Assembly: GCA_043810345.1 (NCBI GenBank)
Contig: JBDROF010000018.1
Location: 97,651-161,650 of the forward strand
DNA from: Bacteroidota bacterium
GTDB lineage: Bacteria; Bacteroidota; Bacteroidia; Bacteroidales; FEN-979
Length of the DNA: 64,000 nucleotides
Direction: 5' to 3'
How positions within the stretch are numbered: the first letter of the stretch is position 1; the number at the start of each line of letters is the position of its first letter. The position numbers and the translations under genes were made by a program. Positions 4,924-63,081 of the stretch are shown here, piece by piece. The notes beneath the pieces were generated by a model. That model was not told the DNA's origin. It did no database searches and saw nothing but the letters and a program-made list of their open reading frames with translations.

Positions 4924-4991
4924 TGATAAGATATAAGATATTAGATGTTAGATATATTGCCAATTGCCAACTGCCAACTGCTAACTGCTAA
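4924..4991. repeat. Intergenic 'morphing' short tandem repeat
   Basis: gataagatataagatattagatgttagatatat is followed by tgccaattgccaactgccaactgctaactgctaa. Each unit differs from its neighbour by 1-2 nt. Confidence 0.85.
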
Positions 4992-5154
4992 TTTTTTTCT
5001 CAGGCACAGCCGGCGCATTTCCGTCATGAGCTCGAGTTTTATGAAATGAACTTTTGCGAAACAAATATACATAATCAACACAACCCTTCCTTTTATCTCA
5101 TTCCGCATAAGTAATCATTAATCACGTTTCGCGTATCTCGAATCCGGCTTCCTT

Positions 5155-16080: not shown

Positions 16081-17406
16081 ATGTTTAAACAATTCATCTG
16101 GTTATTCCTGTTCCAGCTCCTGGCCACATCTTCCATTGTGGCTCAGGATGTTTCTATTACACCGGTCATTGATCAGGCATCAGAGAAAAACCTCTTCGAT
16201 CAGTTTTTCACCGGCAAGACCCTGCGGATCGATTACTTACTTGCCGGGAATGATGAAGTGGCGAATATCTACCTCTGGCAACTAAAAGAGGAACCGTTCT
16301 GGGGTGGTCCCCGGAAAAACCTCCTTGATCCCTGGAATTCAGGTAATTTCCGATTTTCAGTGTTCGACTCGGCAACGGGAACCCTCCTGTACCGGAAAGG
16401 ATTCTCCACCCTTTTTGAGGAGTACCAGGGGACACCCGAGGCAAAGCAGGTCGCCCGCGGTTATCCGATGACCGCCACCCTGCCCTATCCGCTTAAACCG
16501 GTTCGTTTTGAGATTGATAAACGCGCCTATGCCACCGGAGCGTTTGAATGCCTGTTTACGCTGGATATTGATCCGCAGGATTACTTCATCCTGCATGAAC
16601 CGGTTGAGCCCAACCCTGTGACACCCCTTGTCGATCCCGGTGATCCTGCCACACAACTGGATATTGTCTTCCTGGCTGAGGGGTATACAGTGGATGAGAT
16701 GACTAAATTCTTGGATGACGCCCGCCGGATCAGCAACTATTTTCTCTCCGTAGCTCCCTTTAATGATTATACCGAGAAAATCAACTTCTGGGCGATAGAA
16801 TCCCCTTCGGTTGGTTCGGGAATCGACATTCCGGGAAAACGGGAGTATGTAAATACGCGCTTCAACAGCAGCTTTTACACTTTCGACAGTGACCGGTACC
16901 TCACCACGCCAGATACCTGGAGTATGCGGGATGCGGCGGCCAATGTTCCGTACGATCAGATCATCATCCTGGATAATAGCAGGAAATACGGCGGAGGCGG
17001 GTTTTATAATCACTATTGCCAGAGTACCGTAGATAATGAATGGAGTGAGATCGTGACCATTCATGAGTTTGGTCATGCTTTTGGCGGACTGGCCGACGAA
17101 TATGTAGGCGGGGTGAATTATGACGGTTTTTACAACCTGGAGATGGAACCCTGGGAGCCGAATATTACCACAAACGTAGACTTCGGTTCCAAATGGAAAT
17201 CGATGATCCATGATACCATTCCCGTGCCAACTCCAAGGGACTCAACCTACCAGCATGTTGTGGGTTTGTTCGAAGGGGGTGGATACATGGCCAAAGGTAT
17301 CTTCAGTCCGGTGATGAACTGCCGGATGAAAGAGAACAGTGCCAAAGGTTTTTGTCCGGTCTGCCGCGAAGCCATCCGCCAGAAGATCCTCTTTTACTGT
17401 GACTAA
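16081..17406 (+). CDS. Peptidase M64 (IgA-peptidase-like) family zinc metalloprotease, secreted
   Basis: 441 aa with a signal peptide. It has the HExxH context IVTIHEFGHAFGGLADEY that is characteristic of M64. Confidence 0.85.
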   Translation: MFKQFIWLFLFQLLATSSIVAQDVSITPVIDQASEKNLFDQFFTGKTLRIDYLLAGNDEVANIYLWQLKEEPFWGGPRKNLLDPWNSGNFRFSVFDSATGTLLYRKGFSTLFEEYQGTPEAKQVARGYPMTATLPYPLKPVRFEIDKRAYATGAFECLFTLDIDPQDYFILHEPVEPNPVTPLVDPGDPATQLDIVFLAEGYTVDEMTKFLDDARRISNYFLSVAPFNDYTEKINFWAIESPSVGSGIDIPGKREYVNTRFNSSFYTFDSDRYLTTPDTWSMRDAAANVPYDQIIILDNSRKYGGGGFYNHYCQSTVDNEWSEIVTIHEFGHAFGGLADEYVGGVNYDGFYNLEMEPWEPNITTNVDFGSKWKSMIHDTIPVPTPRDSTYQHVVGLFEGGGYMAKGIFSPVMNCRMKENSAKGFCPVCREAIRQKILFYCD

Positions 17407-18247
17407 AGGGCTGATTTTCGACATCAAACGGTTTGCTGTCCACGACGGTCCCGGAATCCGTACCACCATCTTTTTCAAGGGTTGTCCTCTCTCCTGCTGG
17501 TGGTGTCATAATCCGGAGAGCCGGGATAAGAAGCCGCAAAAATCGGTCAAACATTTTTCCCTGAATGGAAAACTCTTTGAAAAAGAAGAGATTACGGGCT
17601 ACAGGAGAAGTGTAGAAGCGATCGTTCAGGAGGTTGAAAGAGACCTGATCTTTTACGAGGAATCGGGAGGTGGGGTCACCCTATCGGGAGGAGAGCCGCT
17701 GTATCAGCCGGATTTTTGTGAGGCCCTGCTGAAATCCTTGAAGAAGAATGGCTTCCATACAGCCCTGGATACCTCCGGTTATGCATCTGAAGAAGAGATC
17801 CGTCGTATCCTGCCTTATACCGATCTTTTTCTGTACGATCTGAAGCTTATGTATGACAAGGAACACCTGAAGTACACCGGTGTCTCCAATAAAATCATTC
17901 TCGAAAACCTGAAAACTCTATTCGAATCCGGAAAACAGGTAATCATCCGCTTCCCCGTCATCCCCGGCATCACCGACACCCCCTCTAATATCCGTTCGAT
18001 CATTGACTTCCTCACACCACTGCACCATTGCACCACTGCACCCCAACACTTTTCACCACCTCACCACCTCACCACCTCACCACCTGAACTGCATCTCCTC
18101 CCCTACCACACGACTGCAAAAAACAAATACCGCAGGTTTCAGATGGACGATAACATACCACCCGGGAATAAACTTAAACATGGGCGGTTAGAACAACTGA
18201 AAAAAAGGTTTGAACAGTCCGGTTTCCGGGTAGTGGTCAGAGGGTAG
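17399..18247 (+). CDS. Glycyl-radical enzyme activating protein (radical SAM), minimal PflA-like form
   Basis: KGLIFDIKRFAVHDGPGIRTTIFFKGCPLSCWWCHNPES (CxxxCxxC), GGVTLSGGEPL, ELHLLPYH..KNKY. There is no Cys-rich ferredoxin insert after the cluster motif. The GTG at 17399 gives the typical N-terminus. The ORF-track ATG at 17339 would overlap the M64 gene by 68 nt. Confidence 0.88.
   Translation: MTKGLIFDIKRFAVHDGPGIRTTIFFKGCPLSCWWCHNPESRDKKPQKSVKHFSLNGKLFEKEEITGYRRSVEAIVQEVERDLIFYEESGGGVTLSGGEPLYQPDFCEALLKSLKKNGFHTALDTSGYASEEEIRRILPYTDLFLYDLKLMYDKEHLKYTGVSNKIILENLKTLFESGKQVIIRFPVIPGITDTPSNIRSIIDFLTPLHHCTTAPQHFSPPHHLTTSPPELHLLPYHTTAKNKYRRFQMDDNIPPGNKLKHGRLEQLKKRFEQSGFRVVVRG
18013..18086. repeat. 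Morphing short tandem repeat lying in frame inside the activase CDS
   Basis: cacaccactgcaccattgcaccactgcacc..caccacctcaccacctcaccacctcaccacctg encodes HHCTTAPQHFSPPHHLTTSPP, directly before the conserved ELHLLPYH block. Confidence 0.85.
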
Positions 18248-18265
18248 CATGAAGAGATTTGTGAC

Positions 18266-18994
18266 ATGAACTCTGCAGACATCCGGTTTTACGAGGAATT
18301 GAATGATTTCCTTCCACAAATCAAGCGGAAAGTTTCCTGCCAGGTTTATTTTCGCGGCCATCCAAGCATTAAACATGTGATCGAATCTGAGCGGGTTCCT
18401 CATACCGAAGTAGACCTGATCCTGATCAATGGCCGATCTGTTTCATTTGCTGAAAAGGTGCAGAACGCTGACATCATATCTGTTTATCCTGTCTTTGAAT
18501 CGTTTGATATTTCCCTGGTCAGCAAGCTCCGGCCGGAACCCCTGCGTAATCCCCGGTTTATCCTTGATGTTCACCTTGGGAAACTAACCCGCTACATGAG
18601 AATGCTGGGATTTGATTCTTGTTTTTCACCTGATTACACTGACCGGGAGCTGGTTGGGATCTCATTGTCCCAGAACCGGACTGTACTGACCCGTGATCGC
18701 CAATTGTTGATGAAAAAAGAGCTCGAGCGGGGATACTGGATTCGTTCAGATCACATCATTGAACAGGTGAAGGAGGTGATGCGGAGATTTGACCTGGCAC
18801 GTCTTGTCCACAGGTATTCCCGGTGTACCCAATGCAACGGAACCCTTAGCCGGGTGGATGCATCCATTGCCCACGGACGATTTCCAGATCATGATTTTTC
18901 CCCGGACCTCCATTTTTCTCAGTGCGATACATGCAAACATATATATTGGCGGGGATCGCATTGCGATCGGTTCGACCAGGCTGTCCTGCCTTAA
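18266..18994 (+). CDS. Mut7-C RNase domain protein with N-terminal ubiquitin-like (Ub-Mut7C) domain and C-terminal zinc ribbon
   Basis: 242 aa. Motifs: FYEELNDFL...VYFRG.PSIKHVIES.RVPHTEVDLILING, FILDVHLGKLTRYMRMLGFDS, LTRDRQLL, CTQCNG...CDTCKHIYWRGSHCDR. Confidence 0.7.
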   Translation: MNSADIRFYEELNDFLPQIKRKVSCQVYFRGHPSIKHVIESERVPHTEVDLILINGRSVSFAEKVQNADIISVYPVFESFDISLVSKLRPEPLRNPRFILDVHLGKLTRYMRMLGFDSCFSPDYTDRELVGISLSQNRTVLTRDRQLLMKKELERGYWIRSDHIIEQVKEVMRRFDLARLVHRYSRCTQCNGTLSRVDASIAHGRFPDHDFSPDLHFSQCDTCKHIYWRGSHCDRFDQAVLP

Positions 18995-19024
18995 ATGGAG
19001 ATGGATCTCAATGTGCTTTTAATG

Positions 19025-19032
19025 TATCTTTG
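19025..19032 (+). promoter_or_regulatory. Candidate -7 box (TAnnTTTG) upstream of the glycyl-radical enzyme gene
   Basis: tatctttg lies 46 nt upstream of the ATG at 19079. Confidence 0.4.
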
Positions 19033-19078
19033 TTAAAATAAATAGCAAAGCGAAACAGGGAAATGTCGAGAGTATCGA

Positions 19079-21481
19079 ATGACAGATAGGATTAAAAAAC
19101 TAAGGGAGCAAACTCTTCAGGCGGTTAACCGCATCAACGCCGAAAGGGCGTTGCTGGTGACAGAATTCTACAAAAGCGGGATCGACAAGGAGGTGTCGAC
19201 GCCTGTGATGCGTGCCATGACATTGTTACACATCCTTCAGCATAAACACATCTGCATCAATGAAGGGGAACTGATCGTCGGGGAGCGGGGGCCGGCGCCC
19301 AAGGCATGTCCCACCTATCCGGAGATCTGCCTGCACTCCCTGGAAGACCTGGAGATCCTCGATTCCAGGAAAAAGGTCTCCTTTCAGGTAGACAAGGAAA
19401 CCCGGAAAGCATATGCCGGTCAAATCATCCCTTTCTGGCAGGGCAAAAGTAACCGCGACCGGATCATGCAGGCCATGGAGCAGGAATGGCTGGATGTATA
19501 CAATGCCGGCGTGTTCACTGAATTTCAGGAGCAACGGGCACCAGGCCATACCGTGGCGGGGGAAAAGATCTACCGGAAGGGGATGCTGGATCTGATACTA
19601 GAGATACGAGATGCAAGATCCGGGATAAAGTGGGAAAGTGAACCGGAAGCCGCTGCAAGGGAGGAAGAGCTGAAGGCGATGGAGATTGCAGCTAATGCCA
19701 TCATCCTGTTTGCGAACAGATGTGCGGATGTACTTGAAGGTCTTGTACCCCTCCCCCAGACCCTCCCAAACAATGGAGAGGAGAATCCAACATCCAGCAT
19801 CCCGCATCCAGGATCTGGCAACGAACTGCTTGCACTGGCCAGGATCTGCCGCAGTGTTCCGGCTCACGCTCCGGAAACTTTCCACGAAGCCCTGCAGCAT
19901 TACTGGTTTATTCACCTGGGCGTGATCACAGAGTTGAATCCATGGGATTCATTCAATCCAGGAAGGCTGGATCAGCATCTCTACCCATTTTATAAACGGG
20001 AAACTGAGGCAGGAACTCTGACGAGAAAGCGTGCTGAAGAACTGCTTCAGAGCTTCTGGATCAAATTCAACAACCATCCGGCCCCACCGAAGGTCGGGGT
20101 CACGGCACTCGAAAGCAATACCTACACCGATTTTTCACTGATCAACCTGGGAGGCGTTCAGGCCGATGGCTCAGATGCGGTAAATGAGCTGACATTCTTG
20201 ATCCTCGACGTCATCGAAGAGATGCGGTTGTTACAACCCAGTTCCATGGTCCAGTTGAGCAGGAAAAATCCAGATAGTCTGATCAAACGTGCCCTTCAGA
20301 TCACCAAAACCGGTTTCGGGCAACCCTCCTACTTCAACACCGATGCGATTGTGCAGGAACTTATGCGACAGGGGAAATCGGCAGAAGATGCAAGAAACGG
20401 AGGAGCAAGTGGTTGTGTGGAGGCTGGTGCATTCGGTACAGAAGCCTACATCCTCTCCGGCTACTTCAACCTGGCTAAGATCCTGGAGATCACACTGCAT
20501 AACGGCTTCGATCCCCAGACCCGGAAACAGATTGGTCCGGCATCCGGTGATCCGGCATCGTTCTCCTCATTTGAAGAACTGAGGGAAGCATACCGGAAGC
20601 AACTGAATCATTTCATCCATATAAAAATCAGGGGGAATAATACCATTCACCGGATATTTGCTGATCAGATGCCCGTACCATTCCTCTCCCTGATCATTGA
20701 TGATTGCATCACCAATGGAAAAGACTACAACGCAGGTGGAGCACGATACAATACCAGCTACATCCAGGGCGTCGGGCTCGGGAGTCTGACCGACTCCCTC
20801 ACCGCACTGAAATACCATGTGTTCGACCGGAAAACCATCTCCATGGCCGGATTTCTGGACGCCCTGGAGAAAAACTTCAATGATTACGATGAATTCCGGG
20901 TGGAATTGATTTACAACACACCCAAATACGGAAACGATGATGATTTTGCCGATGATGAGGCACGACTGGTTTTCGAGATGTTCTTTGAGGCGGTGGATGG
21001 TCAACCCACTTCCATTGGCGGCATCCACCGGATCAACATGCTTCCTACCACTTCCCATCTCTATTTTGGAAGTGTGATTGGTGCCCTGCCCGATGGCAGA
21101 AAAGCCAAACAACCCCTTTCCGAAGGGATATCTCCAGTCCAGGGAGCCGACACGAAAGGCCCCACGACCGTCCTGAATTCTGCCGCCAAAATCGACCATC
21201 TACGCACCGGCGGCACCTTGTTGAACCAGAAGTTCTCTCCTGAATTCTTTGATGGCGAAGAGTCCATAGATAAACTTACAGCTCTGATCCGAAGCTACTT
21301 CCGGATGAACGGACACCATATCCAGTTTAATGTCGTTTCGGCGGAAACCCTGAAAGATGCCCAGAAACATCCCGAGAAATATCGCGATCTGATTGTTCGG
21401 GTAGCAGGATATAGTGATTACTTTAACGATCTGGGAGAAGAGCTGCAGAACGAGATCATACGCAGGACGGAACAAAAGTAA
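19079..21481 (+). CDS. Glycyl-radical enzyme, PFL-like fold, Cys-x-Glu (dehydratase/lyase) class; substrate unassigned
   Basis: 800 aa. N-terminus TDRIKKLREQ..INAERALLVTEFYK, active-site loop GGASGCVEAGAFG, C-terminal glycyl radical motif RDLIVRVAGYSDYFNDL. Confidence 0.9.
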   Translation: MTDRIKKLREQTLQAVNRINAERALLVTEFYKSGIDKEVSTPVMRAMTLLHILQHKHICINEGELIVGERGPAPKACPTYPEICLHSLEDLEILDSRKKVSFQVDKETRKAYAGQIIPFWQGKSNRDRIMQAMEQEWLDVYNAGVFTEFQEQRAPGHTVAGEKIYRKGMLDLILEIRDARSGIKWESEPEAAAREEELKAMEIAANAIILFANRCADVLEGLVPLPQTLPNNGEENPTSSIPHPGSGNELLALARICRSVPAHAPETFHEALQHYWFIHLGVITELNPWDSFNPGRLDQHLYPFYKRETEAGTLTRKRAEELLQSFWIKFNNHPAPPKVGVTALESNTYTDFSLINLGGVQADGSDAVNELTFLILDVIEEMRLLQPSSMVQLSRKNPDSLIKRALQITKTGFGQPSYFNTDAIVQELMRQGKSAEDARNGGASGCVEAGAFGTEAYILSGYFNLAKILEITLHNGFDPQTRKQIGPASGDPASFSSFEELREAYRKQLNHFIHIKIRGNNTIHRIFADQMPVPFLSLIIDDCITNGKDYNAGGARYNTSYIQGVGLGSLTDSLTALKYHVFDRKTISMAGFLDALEKNFNDYDEFRVELIYNTPKYGNDDDFADDEARLVFEMFFEAVDGQPTSIGGIHRINMLPTTSHLYFGSVIGALPDGRKAKQPLSEGISPVQGADTKGPTTVLNSAAKIDHLRTGGTLLNQKFSPEFFDGEESIDKLTALIRSYFRMNGHHIQFNVVSAETLKDAQKHPEKYRDLIVRVAGYSDYFNDLGEELQNEIIRRTEQK
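19748..19820. repeat. Probable in-frame low-complexity repeat inside the GRE CDS
   Basis: cccctcccccagaccctcccaaacaatggagaggag..catccagcatcccgcatccaggatc encodes PLPQTLPNNGEENPTSSIPHPGSG, just upstream of the conserved ..LALARICRSVPAHAPETFHEALQ block. Confidence 0.5.
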
Positions 21482-21557
21482 TTGCCATCATTGCACATCA
21501 TTGCACATCATTGCGCATCATTGCACATTATTGCATATTATTGCGCATGATTGCCAT
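21481..21557. repeat. Tandem repeat, 10-bp unit (ttgcacatca and variants), about 7.5 copies
   Basis: attgccatca ttgcacatca ttgcacatca ttgcgcatca ttgcacatta ttgcatatta ttgcgcatga ttgccat. It starts on the last base of the GRE stop codon. Confidence 0.92.
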
Positions 21558-21597: not shown

Positions 21598-21993
21598 ATG
21601 GAAAACGTAAATCCAACACCATCCAACAGCCTTAAAGCCACCCGCCTGATCATCCGGATCTTTGCCTCTTTGATCACGCTGTTTTACCTGCTGGTATTAG
21701 TGCCAAAATTCATCCAGACACTTTTAGGAGATTCTCCCGAAAGCCCTCCCGATGCAAGCTGGGAAGGGAACATGGTCACCATCGGATTCCTTGTTTACGT
21801 TCTGGGATACATTCTCACCTGGTGGCGGGGACTCGTTGGGGGGATCATACTTGTTGCAGCGGGTGCAATCATGTTTGCGTCACACATGGTTGCTGCACAA
21901 GGTGAATTGGAGTTTGTGCCCTTCCTTGTATTTTCCGGCCCAATGATCTTTGTCGGAGCCCTCTATATTATCTTCTGGTGGAAAAAATCCTAA
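21598..21993 (+). CDS. Small integral membrane protein, unknown function
   Basis: 131 aa from ATG 21598 with 3-4 hydrophobic helices. The upstream part of the track ORF (from 21511) is just translated tandem repeat. Confidence 0.6.
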   Translation: MENVNPTPSNSLKATRLIIRIFASLITLFYLLVLVPKFIQTLLGDSPESPPDASWEGNMVTIGFLVYVLGYILTWWRGLVGGIILVAAGAIMFASHMVAAQGELEFVPFLVFSGPMIFVGALYIIFWWKKS

Positions 21994-28706: not shown

Positions 28707-29435
28707 ATGAGGCATGTATTAGTGACAGGTGGTTCCAGAGGAATTGGAAGGGCTTGCTGCCTGCGGCTTGCTGATGCAGGGCATTACATCATCATCAACT
28801 ACCTCTTCAACAAGGATGAAGCGGAAAAAACGCTGGAGATGGTTCGTGAAAAAGGGAGTGATGGGGAGTTGCTGAAGTTCGATGTATCCAGCCAGCAGGA
28901 GGTAGAAAAAGCCCTGAATGGATGGATGGAGAAACATGAAGGAGCTTATATATCCATTCTTGTGAACAATGCCGGCATCAGGAAAGATGCCCTGGTTATG
29001 TGGATGAAAGACGACGAATGGCAGGATGTGATCAACACCAACCTGAACGGCTTTCTCTATGTGACCCGAGCCCTGATAAAAGAGATGCTGATCAATAAGT
29101 TCGGCCGGATCATCAATGTGGTTTCGTTATCCGGATTGAAGGGGTTGCCCGGACAAGTCAACTATTCGGCTGCCAAAGCGGGTGTGATCGGAGCTACCAA
29201 GGCGATGGCGCAGGAGGTTGCCAAAAAGAATGTAACGGTCAATGCGGTAGCTCCGGGATTTATCCGCACCGATATGACCAAAGATATGGATGAATCCCAA
29301 CTGAAAGGGATGATTCCGATGGGACGTTTCGGCACCACTGATGAGGTGGCAGGGATCGTTGGTTTTCTTGCTTCTGAAGAGGCCTCTTACATCACAGGAG
29401 CTGTGATAAACGTTAACGGAGGACTATATACCTAA
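28707..29435 (+). CDS. 3-oxoacyl-ACP reductase (SDR, FabG-like ketoreductase)
   Basis: 242 aa. Motifs: VLVTGGSRGIGRA, NNAG, YSAAKAG, PGFIRTDM. Confidence 0.92.
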   Translation: MRHVLVTGGSRGIGRACCLRLADAGHYIIINYLFNKDEAEKTLEMVREKGSDGELLKFDVSSQQEVEKALNGWMEKHEGAYISILVNNAGIRKDALVMWMKDDEWQDVINTNLNGFLYVTRALIKEMLINKFGRIINVVSLSGLKGLPGQVNYSAAKAGVIGATKAMAQEVAKKNVTVNAVAPGFIRTDMTKDMDESQLKGMIPMGRFGTTDEVAGIVGFLASEEASYITGAVINVNGGLYT

Positions 29436-29506
29436 TTACGAATGACGAATTACGAATGACGAATTATATATTAATTTCGCTACCTCGCTACTTCGCTACC
29501 TCGCTA
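29436..29506. repeat. Two adjacent intergenic stutter repeats
   Basis: ttacgaatgacgaattacgaatgacgaatt, then ttcgctacctcgctacttcgctacctcgcta. The first word set recurs at 61631-61653. Confidence 0.9.
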
Positions 29507-31037: not shown

Positions 31038-31940
31038 ATGTCGTCATGGCAAGGAAAAACCAGAGGAGGGGTCCTGGGGTATAAAATCTTTATCTGGACC
31101 TTAAAATACCTTGGCATCCCATTTGCTTATCTCCTCCTCCGTTTTGTTGTGACCTGGTTTGTTTTCAATTCACGGGAAGCCTTCAGGGCTGTTTACGCCT
31201 ACTTCAGGAATATCCAGCACTACTCCATAGTGAAATCGGTGATCAGTATTTTCCACAACTATTATATTTTCGGACAAATACTGATTGACAAACTGGCCAT
31301 GCTGACGGGTTTCCAACATCGCTTCACGTTTGATTTCGAAGGAGAAGAGCATCTGCGACAGATGCAGGATGGAGGATTGCTGATCAGTGCCCATGTGGGA
31401 AACTGGGAGATTGCCGGAAACCTGCTGAACCGTCTCAACAAGCGGATACACATCCTTATGTTTGATGCCGAACACCAACGGATTAAAGGGTACCTTGAAG
31501 ATACCATGAAAAAGCGCAATGTCCACTTCATCATCATCCGTGAGGGCTACAATCATCTGAAAGAGATTGAACAGGCATTCGCAGGAGGGGATATCATCGC
31601 CATGCATGGCGACAGGTTCATTGAAGGGAATAAAACGGTAACGCTTGATTTCATGGGAAAACAGGCTCGTTTCCCGGTCGGGCCGGTTAACCTGGCAGCC
31701 CGGTTTCAGGTTCCTGTTTCTTACGTGTTTGCCGTCAAAGAAACGCGAACCCATTACCACTTCTTTGCCACGTCTCTGTACCGGTTTGAATTTACACGCA
31801 ACCTGAAGAAGAGAGAGCAGATTCTAAAGGAGGCCGTCGCCATTTATGTTCAAAAATTCGAAGAGATCCTGCGCAGATATCCGTTGCAATGGTTTAACTA
31901 CTATGATTTCTGGAAACCCGAACCTGATCTCATCACATAA
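31038..31940 (+). CDS. Lysophospholipid/lipid A-type acyltransferase (LpxL/HtrB-like LPLAT)
   Basis: 300 aa. N-terminal membrane helix, SAHVGNWEIAG (HX4E/D-type motif). Its length and position match the LPLAT found in aryl-polyene/flexirubin clusters. Confidence 0.75.
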   Translation: MSSWQGKTRGGVLGYKIFIWTLKYLGIPFAYLLLRFVVTWFVFNSREAFRAVYAYFRNIQHYSIVKSVISIFHNYYIFGQILIDKLAMLTGFQHRFTFDFEGEEHLRQMQDGGLLISAHVGNWEIAGNLLNRLNKRIHILMFDAEHQRIKGYLEDTMKKRNVHFIIIREGYNHLKEIEQAFAGGDIIAMHGDRFIEGNKTVTLDFMGKQARFPVGPVNLAARFQVPVSYVFAVKETRTHYHFFATSLYRFEFTRNLKKREQILKEAVAIYVQKFEEILRRYPLQWFNYYDFWKPEPDLIT

Positions 31941-31950
31941 TCACCCCGGT

Positions 31951-33312
31951 ATGACCACCAAGAGGTTACTTCTTGTTTCAGCCAACCGTTTCGCGGTCCC
32001 CTATCCGGTCTATCCGTTAGGTATCTCTTACCTGCTCTCATACCTGCAGGACCGCCTGGAGGGTTTCGAGATCCTGGTATTCGACCTGAACCTCCATGGT
32101 GAAGAGGAATTTACCGACTTTCTGAGATACCATAATCCTGATTTCACTGGCGTTTCGCTTCGGAACGTAGATGATGTCAGTTCCTTTTCGCGGGAGTTTT
32201 TCCTGACAGGATACAAAGAGATCATCGACCTGATCCGGAAAACCCTTCCGGAAACAATGCTGATCATCGGGGGTTCTGCCTTCTCTATTTTCCCTGAGGA
32301 GCTGTTTGCCTATTTTCAGCCAGATTTTGGCATTTACGGAGAGGGCGAAGAGAGCCTTTATAAGCTGTTGACCAGCATCCGTGATAGAGTCCCTGTCTAT
32401 GCAATCGAAGGCCTTGTATACCAAAACGGTAACCAGATTGTAGTGAATCCAAGGAACCATTACCTCCGTTCACTCGACCTCTTCTTTTCCGGTAATCTGA
32501 TCCAGTTCTATTGGGAAAAAAGTGGTATGATGAACCTCCAGACCAAGAGAGGTTGCCCCTATGAGTGCATCTACTGTACCTACCCTCTGATTGAGGGCAG
32601 GAAGGTGAGGACACTGGACCCGGATAAGATCGTGGAGAGCCTGAAAGATCTCTATTTCAACAACCAGATCAACTACATCTTTTTTACCGATTCGGTCTTC
32701 AACATCGACCGGAAATTTAACCTTACGCTTGCCCGCAAGATCCTGAAGTCGGGTATCAAGATCCAGTGGGGAGCCTATTTCTCTCCCCATAACATGGCTC
32801 TGGAGGAACTCAAATTGTTTGCAGAATCTGGACTCACTCACATCGAATTTGGAACAGAATCACTTTCAGACAGTACACTGAAACAATACCGGAAACATTT
32901 TACTGTAAACGAGATCGTTGAGGTCTCAGATATGTGTAATGAAGCTGGAATCTATTTCGCCCATTTCCTGATACTTGGTGGTTATGGCGAAACAGAGAAC
33001 AGCATCAACGAGGGATTTGAGAACTCGAAACGGATTACAAACTCTGTCTTTTTTCCCTATGTTGGAATGCGGATCTACCCAGGTACCAGGTTGTATGAAT
33101 TGGCGGTGTCGGACGGAACCATTGATCCGGAAGACAAACTGATTGAGCCAGCCTATTACCTCGCTGATCATATTGACTACGGGAGCCTGAAGGAGCGTGC
33201 TGAACAAACAGGCAGAAGGTGGGTATTCACGGACGAGGATGTAGTGACCTTCATGAACAGATTGAGAGCACGGAACAGAAAAGGATCATTATGGCACCAT
33301 TTGAAAAAATAA
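31951..33312 (+). CDS. B12-binding-domain radical SAM enzyme (#1)
   Basis: 453 aa from ATG 31951. N-terminal Rossmann-like B12-type region (RLLLVSAN..PYPVYPLGISYL..GVSLRNVDDV..IIGGSAFSIFPEE..GEGEE). Radical SAM motif QTKRGCPYECIYCTYP. It is clearly paralogous to 58699-60141. Confidence 0.88.
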   Translation: MTTKRLLLVSANRFAVPYPVYPLGISYLLSYLQDRLEGFEILVFDLNLHGEEEFTDFLRYHNPDFTGVSLRNVDDVSSFSREFFLTGYKEIIDLIRKTLPETMLIIGGSAFSIFPEELFAYFQPDFGIYGEGEESLYKLLTSIRDRVPVYAIEGLVYQNGNQIVVNPRNHYLRSLDLFFSGNLIQFYWEKSGMMNLQTKRGCPYECIYCTYPLIEGRKVRTLDPDKIVESLKDLYFNNQINYIFFTDSVFNIDRKFNLTLARKILKSGIKIQWGAYFSPHNMALEELKLFAESGLTHIEFGTESLSDSTLKQYRKHFTVNEIVEVSDMCNEAGIYFAHFLILGGYGETENSINEGFENSKRITNSVFFPYVGMRIYPGTRLYELAVSDGTIDPEDKLIEPAYYLADHIDYGSLKERAEQTGRRWVFTDEDVVTFMNRLRARNRKGSLWHHLKK

Positions 33313-35967: not shown

Positions 35968-36115
35968 CAATAAATGCCAAATCACAATTAACAAATTTCA
36001 AATAAATCCCAAATTCTAAATCCCAATGATCTAAAACATATGAGAACTGATGTTTGAAATTTTGAACATTGGAGTTTGGTTGTTATTTGTTATTTGGTGC
36101 TTGATATTTGTTAAT
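35968..36115. repeat. AT-rich imperfect palindrome (about 45-nt arms) separating the ABC ATPase and permease genes
   Basis: The left arm aattaacaaatttcaaataaatcccaaattctaaatcccaatg compares with the reverse complement of the right arm, attaacaaatatcaagcaccaaataacaaataacaaccaaactccaatg. The core ..cccaatg/cattgga.tttgg is shared with 60157-60286. Confidence 0.7.
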
Positions 36116-50350: not shown

Positions 50351-50436
50351 AATTTAGAACGCAAGTTAAAAGTTAGAACGACGAACTGTTTTCCAAATTT
50401 CCTAATGACTTAATGACCATTGACTAATGACTAACC
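50346..50436. repeat. Intergenic stutter repeats that contain the start codon of rSAM #2
   Basis: gttagaatttagaacgcaagttaaaagttagaacgacgaac and ctaatgacttaatgaccattgactaatgactaac. Confidence 0.8.
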
Positions 50437-52004
50437 CTAAACGATATACGCTGTTTTTACTGAGTCCCCGCCAGCGCTTTATCAATTATCCAGCGCATAT
50501 TTACCTGGCGAAGATGTTCGGAAAGCAGCGGTTTATGGTGCCATTGGCACTTCCTACGGTGGCGGCTCTTACTCCTGACCATTACGACCTCCATATTTAT
50601 GACGAGGAGATTGAGGAGATCCCGGTAGACATCCTGCCAGATATCGTGGGCATCACTACCCTGGCTGCCACTGTCAACCGGGCTTTTGAACTGGGAGACC
50701 ACTTCCGGAAACTGGGTGCCATCGTGATCTATGGTGGACCTTACGCCTCCTTTCAGGTTGACAAAGCACTGGAACATGGTGATGCAGTAGTGGTTGGAGA
50801 GGCCGAAGAACAATGGGAAAAGCTGCTGGAGGATTTTGAGCAAAATAATTTGCAACAGGTCTATGCGGCAAACTCCTATGTCGACTACCTTACCCAGAAA
50901 CCGCCCCGCTGGGATCTGGTCAATATGAAACGGATCTTCCAGGTAGCGATACAGGTCTCCCGGGGGTGTCCCTTCAACTGCGATTTCTGCATAGTAACCA
51001 AAATCTTCGGACGGAGGATGCGATACCGCGAAATCGATAATGTGGTGGAGGAAATCAACGCAGCTCCTTCGAAGTACTTCTTCTTCGTAGACGATAACCT
51101 CACCATCAATAAACGCTATGCCAGAGAGTTGATGGAGGCAATAAAACCGTTGAAGATCTCCTGGGGTTGCATGTGCAGCATCGATGTGGCGAAAGATGAC
51201 GAACTGCTCAAAGCGATGGCGGATGCGGGATGTTTCAATATCCTCATCGGGTTTGAGTCCCTCAACCCGGATAGCCTGGATGCCTCCAACAAGCATCATA
51301 ACCGGCGTGGGACCATCTATGAGGAGGCCATTCAGAAGATCCATTCCCATGGGATCCATATTAACGCCAGCTTTGTGGTGGGTTTCGACAACGACGACCT
51401 GGAGGAATTCGACCGGATCTACGACTTTACATTGAAACACAGCCTTCCCAATGTCAACCTTCACCTATTGAACGCACCACCGGGATCGGAGATCTATAAG
51501 CGATACCAGGAGGAGGGCCGGCTACTGAATTGTAATCCTGAACTTGGGGTGGGCCATTTCCCTACCATCCACTATATGAATATGTCGCAGATTGAACTGT
51601 TCAATAAATATATGACCACTATCGAACGTTTCTACTCCTTTGACACCGTTCTACGGAAAGCGAAAAACCTGTTCAGCAACGGAAACTTCACAAGATCCGG
51701 TGGCGATATTGCAGCATGGCTGAAAGTTCGTCTCACCTGGATCACGGTTAAGGCATTTCTTATTACAAGAGATACCAGGAAACGGGAGCTCTTTTTTTAT
51801 ATCATCGGCCTGATCCGCTCCAACAAAATTGCGATCGACAAAGGCCTGGGATTCCTGCTAACCATGCTGGGATATCACCGGCATATTGAAGCGCATAAAA
51901 GAAACATGGAAGATTACCGGAACATAGTGAGGGAACAGGACCGGGGTGCGTGGAAAGATCACTCCTCCCCAACCCCTCCCCAAAAAGGGAGGGGAAACCA
52001 GTAA
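50427..52004 (+). CDS. B12-binding-domain radical SAM enzyme (#2), long C-terminal extension
   Basis: 525 aa. B12-type N-terminus (LALPTVAALTP..DIVGITTLAATVNRAFELGDHFRKLGAIVIYGGPYAS..VVVGEAE). Radical SAM motif VSRGCPFNCDFCIV. The C-terminal about 150 aa may be DUF4070-like (recollection only). Confidence 0.88.
   Translation: MTNPKRYTLFLLSPRQRFINYPAHIYLAKMFGKQRFMVPLALPTVAALTPDHYDLHIYDEEIEEIPVDILPDIVGITTLAATVNRAFELGDHFRKLGAIVIYGGPYASFQVDKALEHGDAVVVGEAEEQWEKLLEDFEQNNLQQVYAANSYVDYLTQKPPRWDLVNMKRIFQVAIQVSRGCPFNCDFCIVTKIFGRRMRYREIDNVVEEINAAPSKYFFFVDDNLTINKRYARELMEAIKPLKISWGCMCSIDVAKDDELLKAMADAGCFNILIGFESLNPDSLDASNKHHNRRGTIYEEAIQKIHSHGIHINASFVVGFDNDDLEEFDRIYDFTLKHSLPNVNLHLLNAPPGSEIYKRYQEEGRLLNCNPELGVGHFPTIHYMNMSQIELFNKYMTTIERFYSFDTVLRKAKNLFSNGNFTRSGGDIAAWLKVRLTWITVKAFLITRDTRKRELFFYIIGLIRSNKIAIDKGLGFLLTMLGYHRHIEAHKRNMEDYRNIVREQDRGAWKDHSSPTPPQKGRGNQ
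51961..51998. repeat. GC hairpin repeat forming the C-terminal tail of rSAM #2
   Basis: actcctccccaacccctccccaaaaagggaggggaaac has an 8-bp stem (cccctccc/gggagggg). It encodes ..SSPTPPQKGRGNQ*. Confidence 0.85.
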
Positions 52005-58651: not shown

Positions 58652-58746
58652 TTGCGTATCATTGCCATCATTTCCAAGATTGCACATGAATTGATTTTTT
58701 ACGTCTTATATCCTTCGTCCTTCGTCGCTCCTCTTTCTTCCTTCCT
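58652..58746. repeat. Stutter repeats between DUF1573 and rSAM #3, extending into the 3' end of the rSAM #3 CDS
   Basis: ttgcgtatcattgccatcatttccaagattgcacatgaattg uses the same words as the 21481-21557 tandem repeat. tccttcgtccttcgtcgctcctctttcttccttcc encodes (minus strand) the C-terminal tail ..RKEERGATKDEG... Confidence 0.8.
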
Positions 58747-60141
58747 GATTCTTAGCAGTGTCCTGAACATGGGTTCGGTTAGCTCTTTCTCTTTTCGCGT
58801 AAGCAGGGCTTTTTGCATCAACTCCGGTGAGGGGGAGCTTTCAGCAGATGGAAGACAATTATGGAATGTATTGCTGATCTCTTTCAGTATCTTACCCAGT
58901 TTCTTTTTCGGTGTATCTGCTGAAAAATAGTAGGGTGATGGGTAAAACAGGGATTCCCCGGGTTGGATCACACCCTCTTTCAGAGCGATTTTCTCCAGGG
59001 GTGTATTCGGATAGATCCGCAAGCCAGCATGCATTAATACCATATCTTCTTCGTTGATATACCGGCCAATAAAATTATGTGTCTGGGCAACCGTTTCAGT
59101 AGTCTCTCCCGGTCCTCCAAAGAGAAAGAACCACATGGTAGGCAAGTCATACATCCTGGTCAAGAGGGCAGTGCGCTTGATATCCCGGAAGGTGAATCCT
59201 TTCTGCAGGTTTTTAATAACGGCCGGGGCCGCACTGTCGGGAGTTACATCAATCTGTATAAAACCTGCCTTGATCATCAGTTTAAAGAGTTCATGACTGG
59301 TGTTCCTGGGATTGATCCCCATGGTCCGGAGCCGGGGACGAATATTTCTCCGGATGATGGCGCGACAGATATCTTCTGCATGACCTGCCGGTTCATTAAA
59401 GGTAGAGTCAATGAAATCGAAGGTGACCTTCCCCAACCGGTCCATGGCCTCTTCAATCTCACGTGCAATATCATCCGGATTACGGACCCTGTAACGTCTC
59501 CCCTCTATGCAGGGATAGGTACAATAGATGCACCGGAGTGCGCAACCCCTTTTGGTCTGGACACTATAGACACCACGCTCTTTGTACGGGGAAAAATCGA
59601 TGTGTCGGTCAATCTCAGAAAAAGGGATGGAGTGAAAGGGAATAAACTTTGTCACTGAAACCGCTCCTGCTTTCCTGTTCTCTTTCCTGAACACCTGCGG
59701 GAGGTGATCCACCGGTTTCTCCTTGTCCAGGCAGCGGAGAACCTCCAGGAACACCTCCTCCCCCTCCCCTGTGATCCCATAATCGGCTTCGGTCATCTCC
59801 ATGATCTCCTGCGGAAAGACACTGAATCCACTACCTCCAAGGATTACGGGAGCCTGGGAAACATGTTGAACCGGGTGGATAAAGTCACGCAGTATATCGC
59901 CGATATAAAACACCGTTCTATCAGCGACGACATCGTCGATGTTTCTGATACTGAATCCAATGTAATCGGGATCAAAGGATTTTACCTGATCCACCAGCGA
60001 TCTCCCTTCATTAAAAACCCCGTCATAGATCTTCACATCATACCAAGGTTCCAGGTACGATGCAAGTAAACAAAGTCCCAAAGGGGGAATAGGATAAGGA
60101 AATTTTTCAATATTTGTATTAACCAGAAGGACTCTCTTCAT
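58699..60141 (-). CDS. B12-binding-domain radical SAM enzyme (#3), paralogue of #1
   Basis: 480 aa from ATG 60141. RVLLVNTN..PYPIPPLGLCLL, FSIRNIDDV, ILGGSGFSVFPQE, GEGEE, QTKRGCALRCIYCTYP, GLRIYPNT. All blocks are collinear with 31951-33312. Confidence 0.88.
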   Translation of the reverse strand: MKRVLLVNTNIEKFPYPIPPLGLCLLASYLEPWYDVKIYDGVFNEGRSLVDQVKSFDPDYIGFSIRNIDDVVADRTVFYIGDILRDFIHPVQHVSQAPVILGGSGFSVFPQEIMEMTEADYGITGEGEEVFLEVLRCLDKEKPVDHLPQVFRKENRKAGAVSVTKFIPFHSIPFSEIDRHIDFSPYKERGVYSVQTKRGCALRCIYCTYPCIEGRRYRVRNPDDIAREIEEAMDRLGKVTFDFIDSTFNEPAGHAEDICRAIIRRNIRPRLRTMGINPRNTSHELFKLMIKAGFIQIDVTPDSAAPAVIKNLQKGFTFRDIKRTALLTRMYDLPTMWFFLFGGPGETTETVAQTHNFIGRYINEEDMVLMHAGLRIYPNTPLEKIALKEGVIQPGESLFYPSPYYFSADTPKKKLGKILKEISNTFHNCLPSAESSPSPELMQKALLTRKEKELTEPMFRTLLRIRKEERGATKDEGYKT

Positions 60142-60156
60142 GAAATAAACAATAAG

Positions 60157-60286
60157 CACCAATATTCAATTATCAAATAACAACTAAATACTAATGTTTT
60201 AATCTGTCAGCAGTGATTGAAATGGTTGGCAATTCGGTCATTGGAATTTGGATATATTTGAAATTTGTTTTTTGCGATTTGTAAAT
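60157..60286. repeat. AT-rich imperfect palindrome between rSAM #4 and rSAM #3 (same family as 35968-36115)
   Basis: The left arm ..caaataacaactaaatactaatg compares with the reverse complement of the right arm, caaatttcaaatatatccaaattccaatg. It shares the cattggaatttgg core. Confidence 0.65.
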
Positions 60287-61627
60287 TTAAATTACATCTG
60301 TCCCCTTCTTGATCAGCCACAGCGCTCCAACCCTTTCATGAAATTCTTCATAGGGAAGGGTTGTCTTTGTAACTGCATTAAAAAAGTTATACTTATTATA
60401 ATCATGATCGATAATCTGCTCCTTGATCTGCCGGTAATAGACGGTGCCCGGCATCGGCGACAAAATCGTATAACCGGCATACACAACCGGGTTGGCAGAG
60501 GAGTAATCAGCTAATGCTTTGAAATCATCTTTCATATAATCAAAAGGAATCACATAGTTTCCTCTGACCATGATCCCATATTCATGAAACACCTCAATCG
60601 CCTTCTGATTATCCCCTGCCGGCGATTCCTTCTTGTACCGCTTCAGCTCCTCGTCACGGAATGATTCAAAACCACAGATCACGACTTTTAACCCTCCCCT
60701 TGCCATCTTTTCAATAATCTCCGGATGGTTTGCCGCCACATCGGCCCGGATATCCATCACCAATGTTTTCTCTATCCGTTCTTCCACGATCCGGGCGAAC
60801 AGCTGATTCATGAACGCCATGTCCACCACGGTGTTGGCATCTGCAAACCGCACTACCGAGTACTCGGGAATGGATTGCAGCTCCTGGATCAGGCTTTCAA
60901 CAGTTCGCTGGTGGTATTTCCCCAGGAACTGCGTCCAGATAGAACAAAAGGTGCACTTATAGGGGCATCCAAGAGAGGTAAATACATAGGTACTTGGATC
61001 AGGGCTATTACCAACTCTATAAGTCGATATCCATTTTGCCAGATGCCCACGATCAATCGCCAGGTAATCCTCACAAGCTGCATCCCAGGGTGATGGCTTT
61101 CCAGCTGTCTTCACCAGGACACCCTGCTGCCTGATCAGAATGCCAGCTACTGATTCCAATGGCATTCCAACCGCTTTGGCCCTCATCAACTCCCTGAATA
61201 TATGTGCACACTGCCCCGGGATGACCACATCAACAGAATGATCTGTGAAATCAAAAGGGAGCAGGGTAGCATGCAATCCCCCGGCGACGGTCAGGATCTC
61301 GGGATTCACCTCCTTGACTACCTTACAGATAGTAACAGAATCGTTGAATTCCGAAGTAATCACAGTTACGCCCACCACATCCGGCCGGTGTCTCTCCACA
61401 AGCTCCTTGACAAGTTTCCGTAATGGCGGAGTGGCCGGATCAAGGTCATACTCCCCTTTTGTGTCAAACAACACTACGTCATGATCCTTCACGGCTGCAG
61501 CGACGGTCAGTAATCCCAGAGGCGGACCGATCAATTTCTTGTGGATGAATCGTTTGGCTGCCTTCGGGGCATATTTTAGAATGTTGTTTTCAGGAGAACG
61601 GGGAGGATTTATCAGGAGGATCTTCAT
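60287..61627 (-). CDS. B12-binding-domain radical SAM enzyme (#4)
   Basis: 446 aa from ATG 61627 (the TTG at 61630 is one codon upstream). B12-type N-terminus (KILLINPP..PPLGLLTVAAAV..VVGVTVITSEF..VAGGLHATL). Radical SAM motif TSLGCPYKCTFCSIW. Confidence 0.88.
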   Translation of the reverse strand: MKILLINPPRSPENNILKYAPKAAKRFIHKKLIGPPLGLLTVAAAVKDHDVVLFDTKGEYDLDPATPPLRKLVKELVERHRPDVVGVTVITSEFNDSVTICKVVKEVNPEILTVAGGLHATLLPFDFTDHSVDVVIPGQCAHIFRELMRAKAVGMPLESVAGILIRQQGVLVKTAGKPSPWDAACEDYLAIDRGHLAKWISTYRVGNSPDPSTYVFTSLGCPYKCTFCSIWTQFLGKYHQRTVESLIQELQSIPEYSVVRFADANTVVDMAFMNQLFARIVEERIEKTLVMDIRADVAANHPEIIEKMARGGLKVVICGFESFRDEELKRYKKESPAGDNQKAIEVFHEYGIMVRGNYVIPFDYMKDDFKALADYSSANPVVYAGYTILSPMPGTVYYRQIKEQIIDHDYNKYNFFNAVTKTTLPYEEFHERVGALWLIKKGTDVI

Positions 61628-61630
61628 CAA

Positions 61631-61653: not shown

Positions 61654-61726
61654 TTAAAATGTGATGCAGAAAAGATAATCAAAGGTACATATTTAATAGA
61701 CTTAAGGCTGCCTTGTGTGGAATTGC

Positions 61727-61734
61727 TATTTTTG
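61727..61734 (+). promoter_or_regulatory. Candidate -7 box (TAnnTTTG) upstream of the GT2-DUF2062 gene
   Basis: tatttttg lies 51 nt upstream of the ATG at 61786. Confidence 0.4.
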
Positions 61735-61785
61735 CTTTGTCAACCTCGTTCCCGGATGCCGGATAGCAATTACATAAGCCAGAAG

Positions 61786-63081
61786 ATGAAATCGTTGAGG
61801 TGTTGCGTGATCATTCCAACCTACAACAATGCCGGAACGCTGGAGAAGGTGATCCGAGGAGTACAGGAATATTCTGACGACATCATCGTGGTGAACGACG
61901 GGAGCACGGATGAAACACCGGAGATCTTAAACAAGTTGGCAGCTGGCAGTTGGCACTTGGCAGAAGATGGCACGGCACCACGGCACCACGGCACCACTTC
62001 ACCAGTCACCAGTCACCAGTCACCAGTCACCATAATCACCACTTCCACCACATCCACCACATTCACCATTATCACCATCCCCCGCAACACCGGCAAAGGC
62101 TTCGCGCTCCGGCAAGGATTCAACTATGCTATTCAGCAGGGATACCGCTATGCTATCACGATCGACAGCGATGGGCAACATTTTCCGGAAGACATCCCGA
62201 AATTCATTGAAAAAACAGAAGAGGATCCTGATGCCATCGTGATTGGCGCACGGGACATGAAACAGGAGGATGTACCAGGAACCAGCAGTTTCGGACATAA
62301 ATTCTCCATTTTCTGGTTCCGGGTTGAGACCGGTCTGAGGGTCCCTGATGTACAATCGGGGTATCGCCTTTACCCGCTTAAGCGGATCCAAACCATCCGC
62401 CAATTTTACTGTTCCAGGTACGAATTTGAGGTAGAGATCCTTGTCCGGTTAGCCTGGCGGGGGGTGTCTATCCTATCGGTACCGGTGAAGATCTGGTATG
62501 GAGCAGCCGCGGAGCGTGTTTCACATTTCCGGAAAGGGAGGGATTTTGCTCGGACCAGTCTGCTCAATAGCATTCTGGTCTTTGCAGCCCTTCTCTGGGT
62601 CAGACCGTTCCATTTTACCAAAGGTCTTCGGAAAAAAAGCTTCAGGGAGATCATCCGGGAGTATTTCATCAACAGTGAGGATACCAACGCAAAATTGGCC
62701 TGGTCTGTGGTGCTTGGCATCTTCATCGGGGTATCTCCCGTCTGGGGATATCAGATGATTGTTGCTGTAGCACTGGCACATTTTCTCCGATTGCACAAAT
62801 TTGTCGCACTGGTAGCCTCCAACATCAGCATCCCTCCCCTGATCCCCATTATCCTCTTTTGCAGTTATATCACAGGAGGGTTTGTGCTTGGAGCTGAGAA
62901 CACCCATCTGGAATACTCTTCAGGCATTAATTTCCAGTGGATCAAGCAACACCTGATCCAATACATCGTGGGAAGTTTTGTTTTTGGTGCCGTGCTGGCA
63001 CCTGTGACCGGATTCATCACCTATGTTTTGCTGGTCACCTTCAGAAAGAATGTACAACTAAAAGAGATGGAAAAGAACTAA
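61786..63081 (+). CDS. Family 2 glycosyltransferase fused to a C-terminal DUF2062 membrane domain
   Basis: 431 aa from ATG 61786. GT2 motifs: CCVIIPTYNNAGTLEKVI, VVNDGSTDETPEIL, NTGKGFALRQG, TIDSDGQH. The C-terminal AWSVVLGIFIGVSPVWGYQMIVAVALAHFLRLHKFVALVASNISIPP is DUF2062-like. The track start at 61717 is an upstream GTG. Confidence 0.88.
   Translation: MKSLRCCVIIPTYNNAGTLEKVIRGVQEYSDDIIVVNDGSTDETPEILNKLAAGSWHLAEDGTAPRHHGTTSPVTSHQSPVTIITTSTTSTTFTIITIPRNTGKGFALRQGFNYAIQQGYRYAITIDSDGQHFPEDIPKFIEKTEEDPDAIVIGARDMKQEDVPGTSSFGHKFSIFWFRVETGLRVPDVQSGYRLYPLKRIQTIRQFYCSRYEFEVEILVRLAWRGVSILSVPVKIWYGAAAERVSHFRKGRDFARTSLLNSILVFAALLWVRPFHFTKGLRKKSFREIIREYFINSEDTNAKLAWSVVLGIFIGVSPVWGYQMIVAVALAHFLRLHKFVALVASNISIPPLIPIILFCSYITGGFVLGAENTHLEYSSGINFQWIKQHLIQYIVGSFVFGAVLAPVTGFITYVLLVTFRKNVQLKEMEKN
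61936..62069. repeat. Long morphing tandem repeat (about 134 nt) lying in frame inside the GT2 catalytic domain
   Basis: ttggcagctggcagttggcacttggcag..ggcacggcaccacggcaccacggcaccac..ttcaccagtcaccagtcaccagtcaccagtcaccat..aatcaccacttccaccacatccaccacattcaccattatcaccatc encodes LAAGSWHLAEDGTAPRHHGTTSPVTSHQSPVTIITTSTTSTTFTIITI, between DGSTD and NTGKG. Confidence 0.9.

Follow-up and report, generated by a model that had tools for sequence, protein, structure and literature searches.

A probable HypD-type glycyl-radical enzyme encoded with a short, ferredoxin-less activase in a Bacteroidota genome

The locus analysed here lies within a 64,000-nt stretch of contig JBDROF010000018.1 from a Bacteroidota bacterium (the window, in whose numbering all coordinates are given). 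It comprises, in order on the plus strand, genes for an M64-family peptidase (16081–17406), a glycyl-radical enzyme (GRE) activase (17399–18247), a Mut7-C protein (18266–18994) and an 800-aa GRE (19079–21481). A first-pass annotation of this DNA had presented the GRE as an orphan of unknown substrate. To judge from its sequence, and with a probability of roughly 85%, the enzyme is instead an orthologue of trans-4-hydroxy-L-proline dehydratase (HypD) and belongs to a known family, since it passes the equivalog model of that family, matches the crystal structure of Clostridioides difficile HypD and keeps all of the active-site residues that were compared.

Results

Identity of the glycyl-radical enzyme

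The translation of the open reading frame (ORF) at 19079–21481 contains LIVRVAGYSDYFNDL as well as GGASGCVEAG. The motif RVAGYSDYF carries Gly777, the radical site, and GCVE contains the thiyl site, Cys446, as well as the glutamate of the C-x-E loop, Glu448. Pfam matches to the PFL-like (5.5e-204) and Gly_radical (1.5e-38) domains lie far beyond chance. The HypD equivalog of NCBIfam, NF043068, scored 1209 bits, above its cut-off of 1100, with residues 2–800 covering profile positions 1–783 of 784. No other GRE family scored more than about half as high, the runners-up among the NCBIfam models being the PFL2/glycerol dehydratase subfamily (608 bits), sulfopropanediol dehydratase (484 bits) and the choline lyase CutC (437 bits). 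The top match in the PDB was C. difficile HypD (6vxc; 987 bits, E 3.8e-296), with 54% identity over 781 aligned positions, followed by glycerol dehydratase at 504 bits; HplG (7vua) and the glycerol and propanediol dehydratases reached about half of the 6vxc score or less.

Fifteen residues of C. difficile HypD have been identified as catalytic or substrate-contacting by structure and mutagenesis (eLife 2020, PMC7077986), namely, in C. difficile numbering, Phe152, Arg156, His160, Trp277, Asp278, Lys326, Ser334, Asp339, Phe340, Cys434, Val435, Glu436, Tyr450, Thr645 and Gly765. When aligned to 6vxc with HMMER, the window GRE has the identical residue at all 15 positions, and those that contact the hydroxyl, amine and carboxylate of hydroxyproline (Hyp) or form the aromatic box are kept across the clade. 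An alignment of 82 HypD sequences was compiled from 79 Bacteroidota-type loci (the window included) and the Cetobacterium, Parabacteroides and Enterococcus enzymes; 14 of the 15 positions are invariant in it, and the remaining one is Val, replaced by Ile in 3 of the 82.

The motifs RVAGYSDYF, GGASGCVEAG and CPLSCWWC (the last in the activase) are all present where the first-pass annotation placed them, and its assignment of the GRE to the Cys-x-Glu eliminase class stands, in agreement with the C-V-E loop, NF043068 and 6vxc. The orphan label, on the other hand, falls to the scores of 1209 against 1100 bits with NF043068 and 987 against 504 bits in the PDB, and to the 15 kept residues. Clustering with a characterised GRE whose specificity residues are kept had been set beforehand as the outcome that would end that label; such clustering is what was found, and it points to HypD.

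In comparison with C. difficile HypD (6vxc/6vxe; NF043068), the window enzyme shares the fold, the length, the Gly loop RVAGYSD, the Cys loop GCVE and an adjoining activase gene. It differs in that no proC gene is adjacent, the activase lacks a ferredoxin insert and HypD itself bears a lineage-specific surface insert; moreover, the locus stands among peptidase and glycosidase genes rather than in a Stickland-fermentation context.

Relatives of the locus

Relatives were taken as the best 80 loci from a scan of species-representative genomes, all of them Bacteroidota-type, with one extra locus (L082); clostridial-type and gut-Bacteroidales comparators (Cetobacterium, Parabacteroides, Enterococcus) came from a plasmid collection. 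HypD in the 80 loci is 66–81% identical to the window enzyme. Nearly all of these loci originate from environmental Bacteroidota metagenome-assembled genomes, the nearest being Prolixibacteraceae-like. By tblastn, about 77 of the 80 loci have the activase gene immediately before hypD, and the window order EamA–M64–activase–gap–hypD–GH31–transglutaminase-like is common to a clade of about 25. Five Bacteroidota-type HypD/activase loci (L019, L053, L060, L067 and L075) were found in bins labelled Alphaproteobacteria, Ignavibacteriales, Cloacimonadota or Calditrichia/Calditrichota. One of them, L019, matches the Bacteroidales locus L018 in both gene order and coordinates; at least in this case, therefore, the label looks like a binning error.

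A short activase without the ferredoxin insert

The activase gene (17399–18247, plus strand) encodes a radical S-adenosylmethionine (SAM) protein of 282 aa. Its reading frame is open from 17339, and the conserved start is GTG 17399. The protein contains CPLSCWWCHNPE and carries the motifs CPLSCWWC, GGGVTLSGGEP and LLPYH, of which the first is its single CxxxCxxC cluster motif; a two-cluster ferredoxin-like insert is missing. It scored 276.4 bits with the GRE-activase subfamily model TIGR02494 (PFLE_PFLC; cut-off 174.35). The equivalog for HypD activases, NF043069, was missed at 286.7 bits against 425, two stretches being matched and the middle of the profile left unmatched. By its adjacency to hypD, the protein most probably functions as the HypD activase.

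Between CxxxCxxC and GGGVT the window activase has 51 residues and no Cys, which bears out the earlier description of a minimal activase. This spacer is exactly 51 aa long, with 0–1 Cys, in 58 of the 59 Bacteroidota activases that were extracted from the loci. Activases of species-level relatives are 40–69% identical and share 56 invariant columns, including CxxxCxxC, GGEP and all radical-SAM motifs, and the best 120 database homologues measure 215–308 aa (mostly 260–295 aa) and have no Fer4 domain.

Alignment with the HypD activases of Cetobacterium and Parabacteroides distasonis and with Escherichia coli YbiY showed that about 38 aa have been cleanly deleted between conserved flanks. At this site the Cetobacterium (303 aa) and P. 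distasonis (301 aa) proteins carry two CxxCxxCxxxCP motifs with 8 Cys. These ferredoxin-insert activases (C. somerae WP_330112163 and P. distasonis WP_011966166; NF043069) share with the window activase DGPGIR, CxxxCxxCHNPE, GGGVTxSGGEP, LLPYH, 38–41% identity and a position adjoining hypD, and differ by the roughly 38 residues with the two cluster motifs that the window lacks. In P. distasonis the activase gene is, in addition, downstream of hypD, whereas that of the window is upstream. The P. distasonis locus lies on 'plasmid 5' (L088), and its HypD is 50% identical to that of the window; this divergence and the downstream, ferredoxin-bearing activase therefore indicate that Bacteroidota carry at least two distinct HypD/activase lineages.

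An AlphaFold model of the window activase (35 homologues) has a single-domain fold with a mean predicted local distance difference test score (pLDDT) of 87.6 and a predicted template modelling score of 0.86. Its best Foldseek match is the pyruvate formate-lyase activating enzyme (PFL-AE, PflA; 3cb8), with TM scores of 0.80/0.92 and a root-mean-square deviation of 2.0 Å. Both are single-domain radical-SAM proteins with one cluster, and the model superposes on 3cb8. Nevertheless, identity to PflA is 30–31%, and the window activase scores 276–287 bits with eliminase-type models as against 176 with the PflA model. It also has, relative to E. coli PflA, 20 extra residues without Cys at the insert position, modelled as a beta-hairpin (residues 47–66), where PflA has nothing. 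Because eliminase-type models score far higher and the hairpin is kept, the protein represents a secondary loss and not a PflA relative. The short activase is the norm of the clade and belongs to an eliminase-type lineage from which the ferredoxin insert was secondarily lost.

An activase of only 259 aa without the ferredoxin insert also stands beside an annotated HypD on an Enterococcus raffinosus megaplasmid (L089:3155-3934). In the alignment its deletion is larger than the Bacteroidota one and has different boundaries; consequently, the insert has been lost at least twice, independently, among HypD activases. According to a 2026 review of GREs, the great majority of activases have a ferredoxin domain, the function of which is unknown, and PFL-AE and the ribonucleotide reductase activating enzyme (RNR-AE) are without it (PMC13450708); the activases of GRM5 likewise lack the insert (PMC6325248). 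Given these precedents, the short HypD activase is a variant rather than a new kind. The GRM5 microcompartment activases and the E. raffinosus protein resemble that of the window in being eliminase-class and missing the insert, but their deletions are independent, with other boundaries, and the window has no microcompartment.

The M64 peptidase and the gene neighbourhood

The gene at 16081–17406 (plus strand) encodes a secreted M64-family zinc metallopeptidase with a signal peptide, Pfam matches to Peptidase_M64 (PF09471; 1.5e-66, 225 bits) and M64_N (PF16217; 3.3e-35, 120.7 bits), and an HExxH motif in the form HEFGH. Its TAA stop (17404–17406) lies behind the activase GTG (17399–17401) within GTGACTAA, an overlap that had already been noted from the sequence and is borne out here. 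The GTG start and the overlap are seen again in relatives, and this arrangement suggests that the peptidase is translationally coupled to the activase. An M64 gene directly precedes the activase gene in 25 of the 80 loci and in L082 (about 26 genomes, within L001–L025 and L082), with the same short overlap in 11. We consider this association possibly new. Divergent M64 genes (35–40% identity) also stand upstream of the activase gene in L052, L056 and L072.

Neighbouring ORFs of the 80 loci were clustered and the recurrent clusters annotated. Apart from M64, the most frequent were an EamA transporter (19 loci), GH31 (18), GH92 (16) and a C69 dipeptidase (13). Proline-linked families also recur, namely S37/S28 prolyl peptidases (8 loci), M24 aminopeptidase P/prolidase (7), the proline-racemase family (7) and DPP-IV/S9 (5). 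These neighbours are an independent pointer from gene context to peptides containing Pro and Hyp. A search of the available literature on M64 together with hydroxyproline, on M64 in Bacteroidota and on short HypD activases returned nothing relevant apart from the GRM5 activases.

Genes for bacterial microcompartment shell proteins, for Δ1-pyrroline-5-carboxylate (P5C) reductase and for aldehyde or alcohol dehydrogenases had been reported as missing near the GRE, and none was found among the 47 larger window ORFs scanned, which make up most of the window. Neither the window nor the recurrent neighbours of the 80 loci yielded proC or a P5C dehydrogenase gene. The Cetobacterium HypD locus does contain proC, and the window, with no adjacent P5C reductase gene, does not have the clostridial-type hypD–proC operon. 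Such co-location is, however, the Clostridiales arrangement, and HypD is widespread in Bacteroidetes (PMC6219649). Since proC adjacency is of the Clostridiales type and does not recur in the 80 Bacteroidota-type loci, it marks that arrangement and not the enzyme family; the missing proC neighbour is no argument against HypD, and its earlier use as a sign against the known pathways does not hold.

The spacer between the activase and hypD genes

The gene at 18266–18994 (plus strand), which separates the activase gene from the GRE gene as first described, is intact and encodes a Mut7-C PIN-like RNase (PF01927; 2e-40, 138.7 bits) with an N-terminal ubiquitin-like domain (PF14451, Ub-Mut7C; 1.2e-26, 92.8 bits) and a C-terminal zinc ribbon (CTQC...CDTC). 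Both Pfam matches exceed their gathering thresholds. It begins 18 nt after the activase stop and ends 84 nt before hypD on the same strand, so that the activase gene lies 831 nt upstream of hypD. No intrinsic terminator was predicted on the plus strand from the M64 gene to hypD, and a scan for sigma-70-type promoters is uninformative for Bacteroidota.

A Mut7-C gene occupies this position in three genomes only (the window, L002 and L082), the proteins being 71–76% identical to that of the window. Elsewhere the spacer varies. It is empty in L003, L004 and L013. In eight loci (L005–L008, L011, L015, L018 and L019) it holds an opposite-strand gene for an outer-membrane beta-barrel protein of about 225 aa (PF13568). 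The spacers of L001, L007 and L008 hold an additional opposite-strand gene whose multi-pass membrane product resembles, by eye, AI-2E/PerM permeases, and that of L009 holds a 1378-aa ORF on the hypD strand, glycosidase-like by eye, together with an ORF resembling an outer-membrane protein. On this comparison of gene content, the spacer is an insertion hot spot.

The sequence TAnnTTTG is the consensus of the Bacteroidota -7 promoter element, known from work on Bacteroides promoters. A match to it, TATCTTTG, is found at 19025–19032 on the plus strand, 54 nt upstream of the hypD start, as a putative hypD promoter. Among the relatives, TAnnTTTG occurs 40–75 nt upstream of hypD in 15 of the 41 loci with an activase–hypD gap above 70 nt and in 1 of the 35 with a shorter gap, against a background of 4.6% of random 120-nt windows. 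This enrichment, together with the opposite-strand spacer genes of relatives, is suggestive of hypD having its own promoter in the clade, and the spacer may tolerate insertions for that reason.

The Mut7-C gene could nonetheless be a working part of the system, either as an RNase acting on the M64–activase–hypD transcript or through its ubiquitin-like domain acting on the GRE or its activase. The shared strand, the close spacing on both sides, the absence of a predicted terminator in between and the recurrence of the arrangement in three genomes with well-conserved proteins speak for such a role. Nevertheless, the gene is absent from 77 of the 80 species-level loci, including relatives with the order M64–activase–hypD–GH31 (L001, L003 and L004), and other relatives have unrelated genes in its place, some of them on the opposite strand. 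Furthermore, Mut7-C orthologues with 57–61% identity occur in unrelated neighbourhoods, and single genes of this family occur widely across several phyla. We therefore regard a functional partnership as improbable. With its presence in three genomes only, the varying spacer contents and the orthologues elsewhere, the simplest reading is that the Mut7-C gene entered a permissive spacer recently and has no conserved pathway role.

A repeat search detected no direct or inverted repeats flanking Mut7-C that could be scars of a mobile element; the sole inverted pair (18207–18224 and 18674–18691, 83% complementary) extends into genes and appears to be due to chance. Mut7-C was also considered as a defence or toxin gene and rejected, as there was neither a PADLOC match nor a consistent pattern. 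One distant orthologue is located between HepT/nucleotidyltransferase toxin–antitoxin pairs.

Tandem repeats and low-complexity loops

Two tandem arrays of 8-nt units lie within the activase gene on the plus strand, at 18015–18042 and 18053–18085 (TRF; repeat family D3, 18015–18085). They encode a low-complexity, lineage-specific loop, HHCTTAPQHFSPPHHLTTSPPE, at residues 213–226 just before LLPYH, which is hypervariable from one relative to the next and modelled as disordered (pLDDT <50 at these residues). The units are not multiples of three, and the gain or loss of one would shift the activase frame; phase variation of the activase by this route is speculative. Inside hypD, a 7-nt array (19785–19815, plus strand; TRF) coincides with the low-complexity surface insert at about residues 223–246. 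This insert is variable or absent in relatives as well as in the Cetobacterium, Parabacteroides and Enterococcus enzymes, and it faces an alignment gap in C. difficile HypD.

Directly after the hypD stop, the repeat search and TRF found a 10-nt array of about 7.5 copies, ATTGCACATC, at 21481–21554. Arrays of 7–10-nt units recur across the window (4926–4993, 18015–18085, 19785–19815, 21481–21554, 29434–29506, 36003–36113 and 61934–62077); they are mostly intergenic and also occur in the activase gene, in hypD and in the ORF at 61717–63081, where they encode hypervariable low-complexity loops. Similar repeats are present in the activase–hypD spacers of L005, L013, L021, L036 and L069.

Other genes of the window

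A small membrane protein with a DUF7670 domain (Pfam, 7.6e-07) is encoded downstream of hypD at 21598–21993 on the plus strand. Its probable start is ATG 21598 (MENVNPTPS...) and not the TTG listed at 21511, because the latter falls inside the 10-nt array. DUF7670 follows hypD only in the window and in L004.

A large lipid- or polyketide-type biosynthetic cluster extends over 28707–56053 plus 58699–61630 (minus strand). It contains at least seven ketoacyl-synthase-like ORFs, a short-chain dehydrogenase/reductase, two enoyl-CoA hydratases, a 3-hydroxyacyl-CoA dehydrogenase, a LolA-like protein, an ABC-2 transporter, a polysaccharide deacetylase, a BtrH_N/DUF4872 protein, a lipid-A-type acyltransferase and a further acyltransferase. 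Four genes for B12-binding radical-SAM proteins belong to it (31846–33312, 50427–52004, 58699–60162 and 60287–61630), which is an unusual multiplicity. The cluster otherwise looks aryl-polyene- or flexirubin-like.

Discussion

Several observations weigh against reading this locus as a HypD system. Identity to the sole characterised HypD is just 54%, and for this Bacteroidota clade the reading comes from comparison of sequences. No enzyme that consumes P5C was detected by ORF scans in the window. As the NF043069 cut-off is missed, the activase is assigned to HypD by adjacency and subfamily membership, and a short activase is not trivially expected to work alone on an eliminase-class GRE. Finally, what suggests a link between M64 and hydroxyproline is association only, and what suggests a separate hypD promoter is a consensus match only.

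The divergence from C. difficile HypD, the missing proC neighbour, the atypical activase and the lineage-specific insert could also indicate a HypD-like enzyme with another substrate, such as a different hydroxyproline isomer, a Hyp dipeptide or a cyclic amine, in which case the orphan label would effectively be right. We consider this very improbable, given that the clade keeps, without variation, the Hyp-contacting residues and the aromatic box of C. difficile HypD and that the equivalog cut-off is exceeded. Moreover, the insert, a surface loop of tandem-repeat origin, is variable, and HplG and the glycerol and propanediol dehydratases fall to about half of the 6vxc score or below. That the activase is degenerate, having lost the ferredoxin domain and gained a repeat loop, with HypD activated by another enzyme or the locus decaying, is hardly credible: the missed equivalog, the possible frame shifts by slippage in the 8-nt arrays and the reported importance of the auxiliary domain in another system (PMC13450708) are outweighed by the exact spacer length and invariant columns across its relatives, its near-constant place beside hypD, a model that is confident outside the loop, and the PFL-AE, RNR-AE and GRM5 activases, which lack the insert and are functional or at least known to exist.

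With the enzyme taken as HypD, the following course of events can be proposed. The secreted M64 peptidase, with the nearby C69 dipeptidase, EamA transporter, asparaginase and glycosidases, would probably release Hyp from Pro/Hyp-rich proteins or glycoproteins. By analogy with the PFL activase, the single [4Fe-4S] cluster of the activase would reductively cleave SAM and abstract a hydrogen from Gly777. Following the mechanistic model from C. difficile HypD (PMC7077986), the radical would then move from Gly777 to Cys446, and the thiyl radical would abstract a hydrogen from C5 of hydroxyproline. With the help of Asp290, His157 and Glu448 the 4-OH group would leave, and P5C would form once the hydrogen had been given back at C4. 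Reduction of P5C to proline, or its oxidation to glutamate, would fall to housekeeping enzymes whose genes lie elsewhere. A further step, which we put forward tentatively and at somewhat less than even odds, is that in environmental Bacteroidota the M64 peptidase, the ferredoxin-less activase and HypD form a dedicated module for harvesting Hyp from collagen-like proteins or from plant or algal Hyp-rich glycoproteins, in which the short activase is self-sufficient.

The identification removes a false orphan, as the enzyme would be HypD, a well-described and abundant anaerobic enzyme. It leaves two leads. One is that some orthologous HypD activases have lost the ferredoxin domain in nature, the other the association of M64 with HypD. 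For the latter, the conserved, coupled gene points to Pro/Hyp-rich proteins as a substrate class of a peptidase family otherwise uncharacterised in Bacteroidota, and M64 would supply the "enzymes that release free Hyp", which the HypD literature lists as unknown (PMC6219649). As for the former, a large clade of environmental Bacteroidota, and independently Enterococcus, combine an eliminase-class GRE with a ferredoxin-less activase and thus offer matched natural variants for the role of the domain. If the short activase is indeed self-sufficient, three-cluster clostridial or Parabacteroides HypD activases and their one-cluster Bacteroidota orthologues would constitute a natural experiment on the auxiliary ferredoxin domain.

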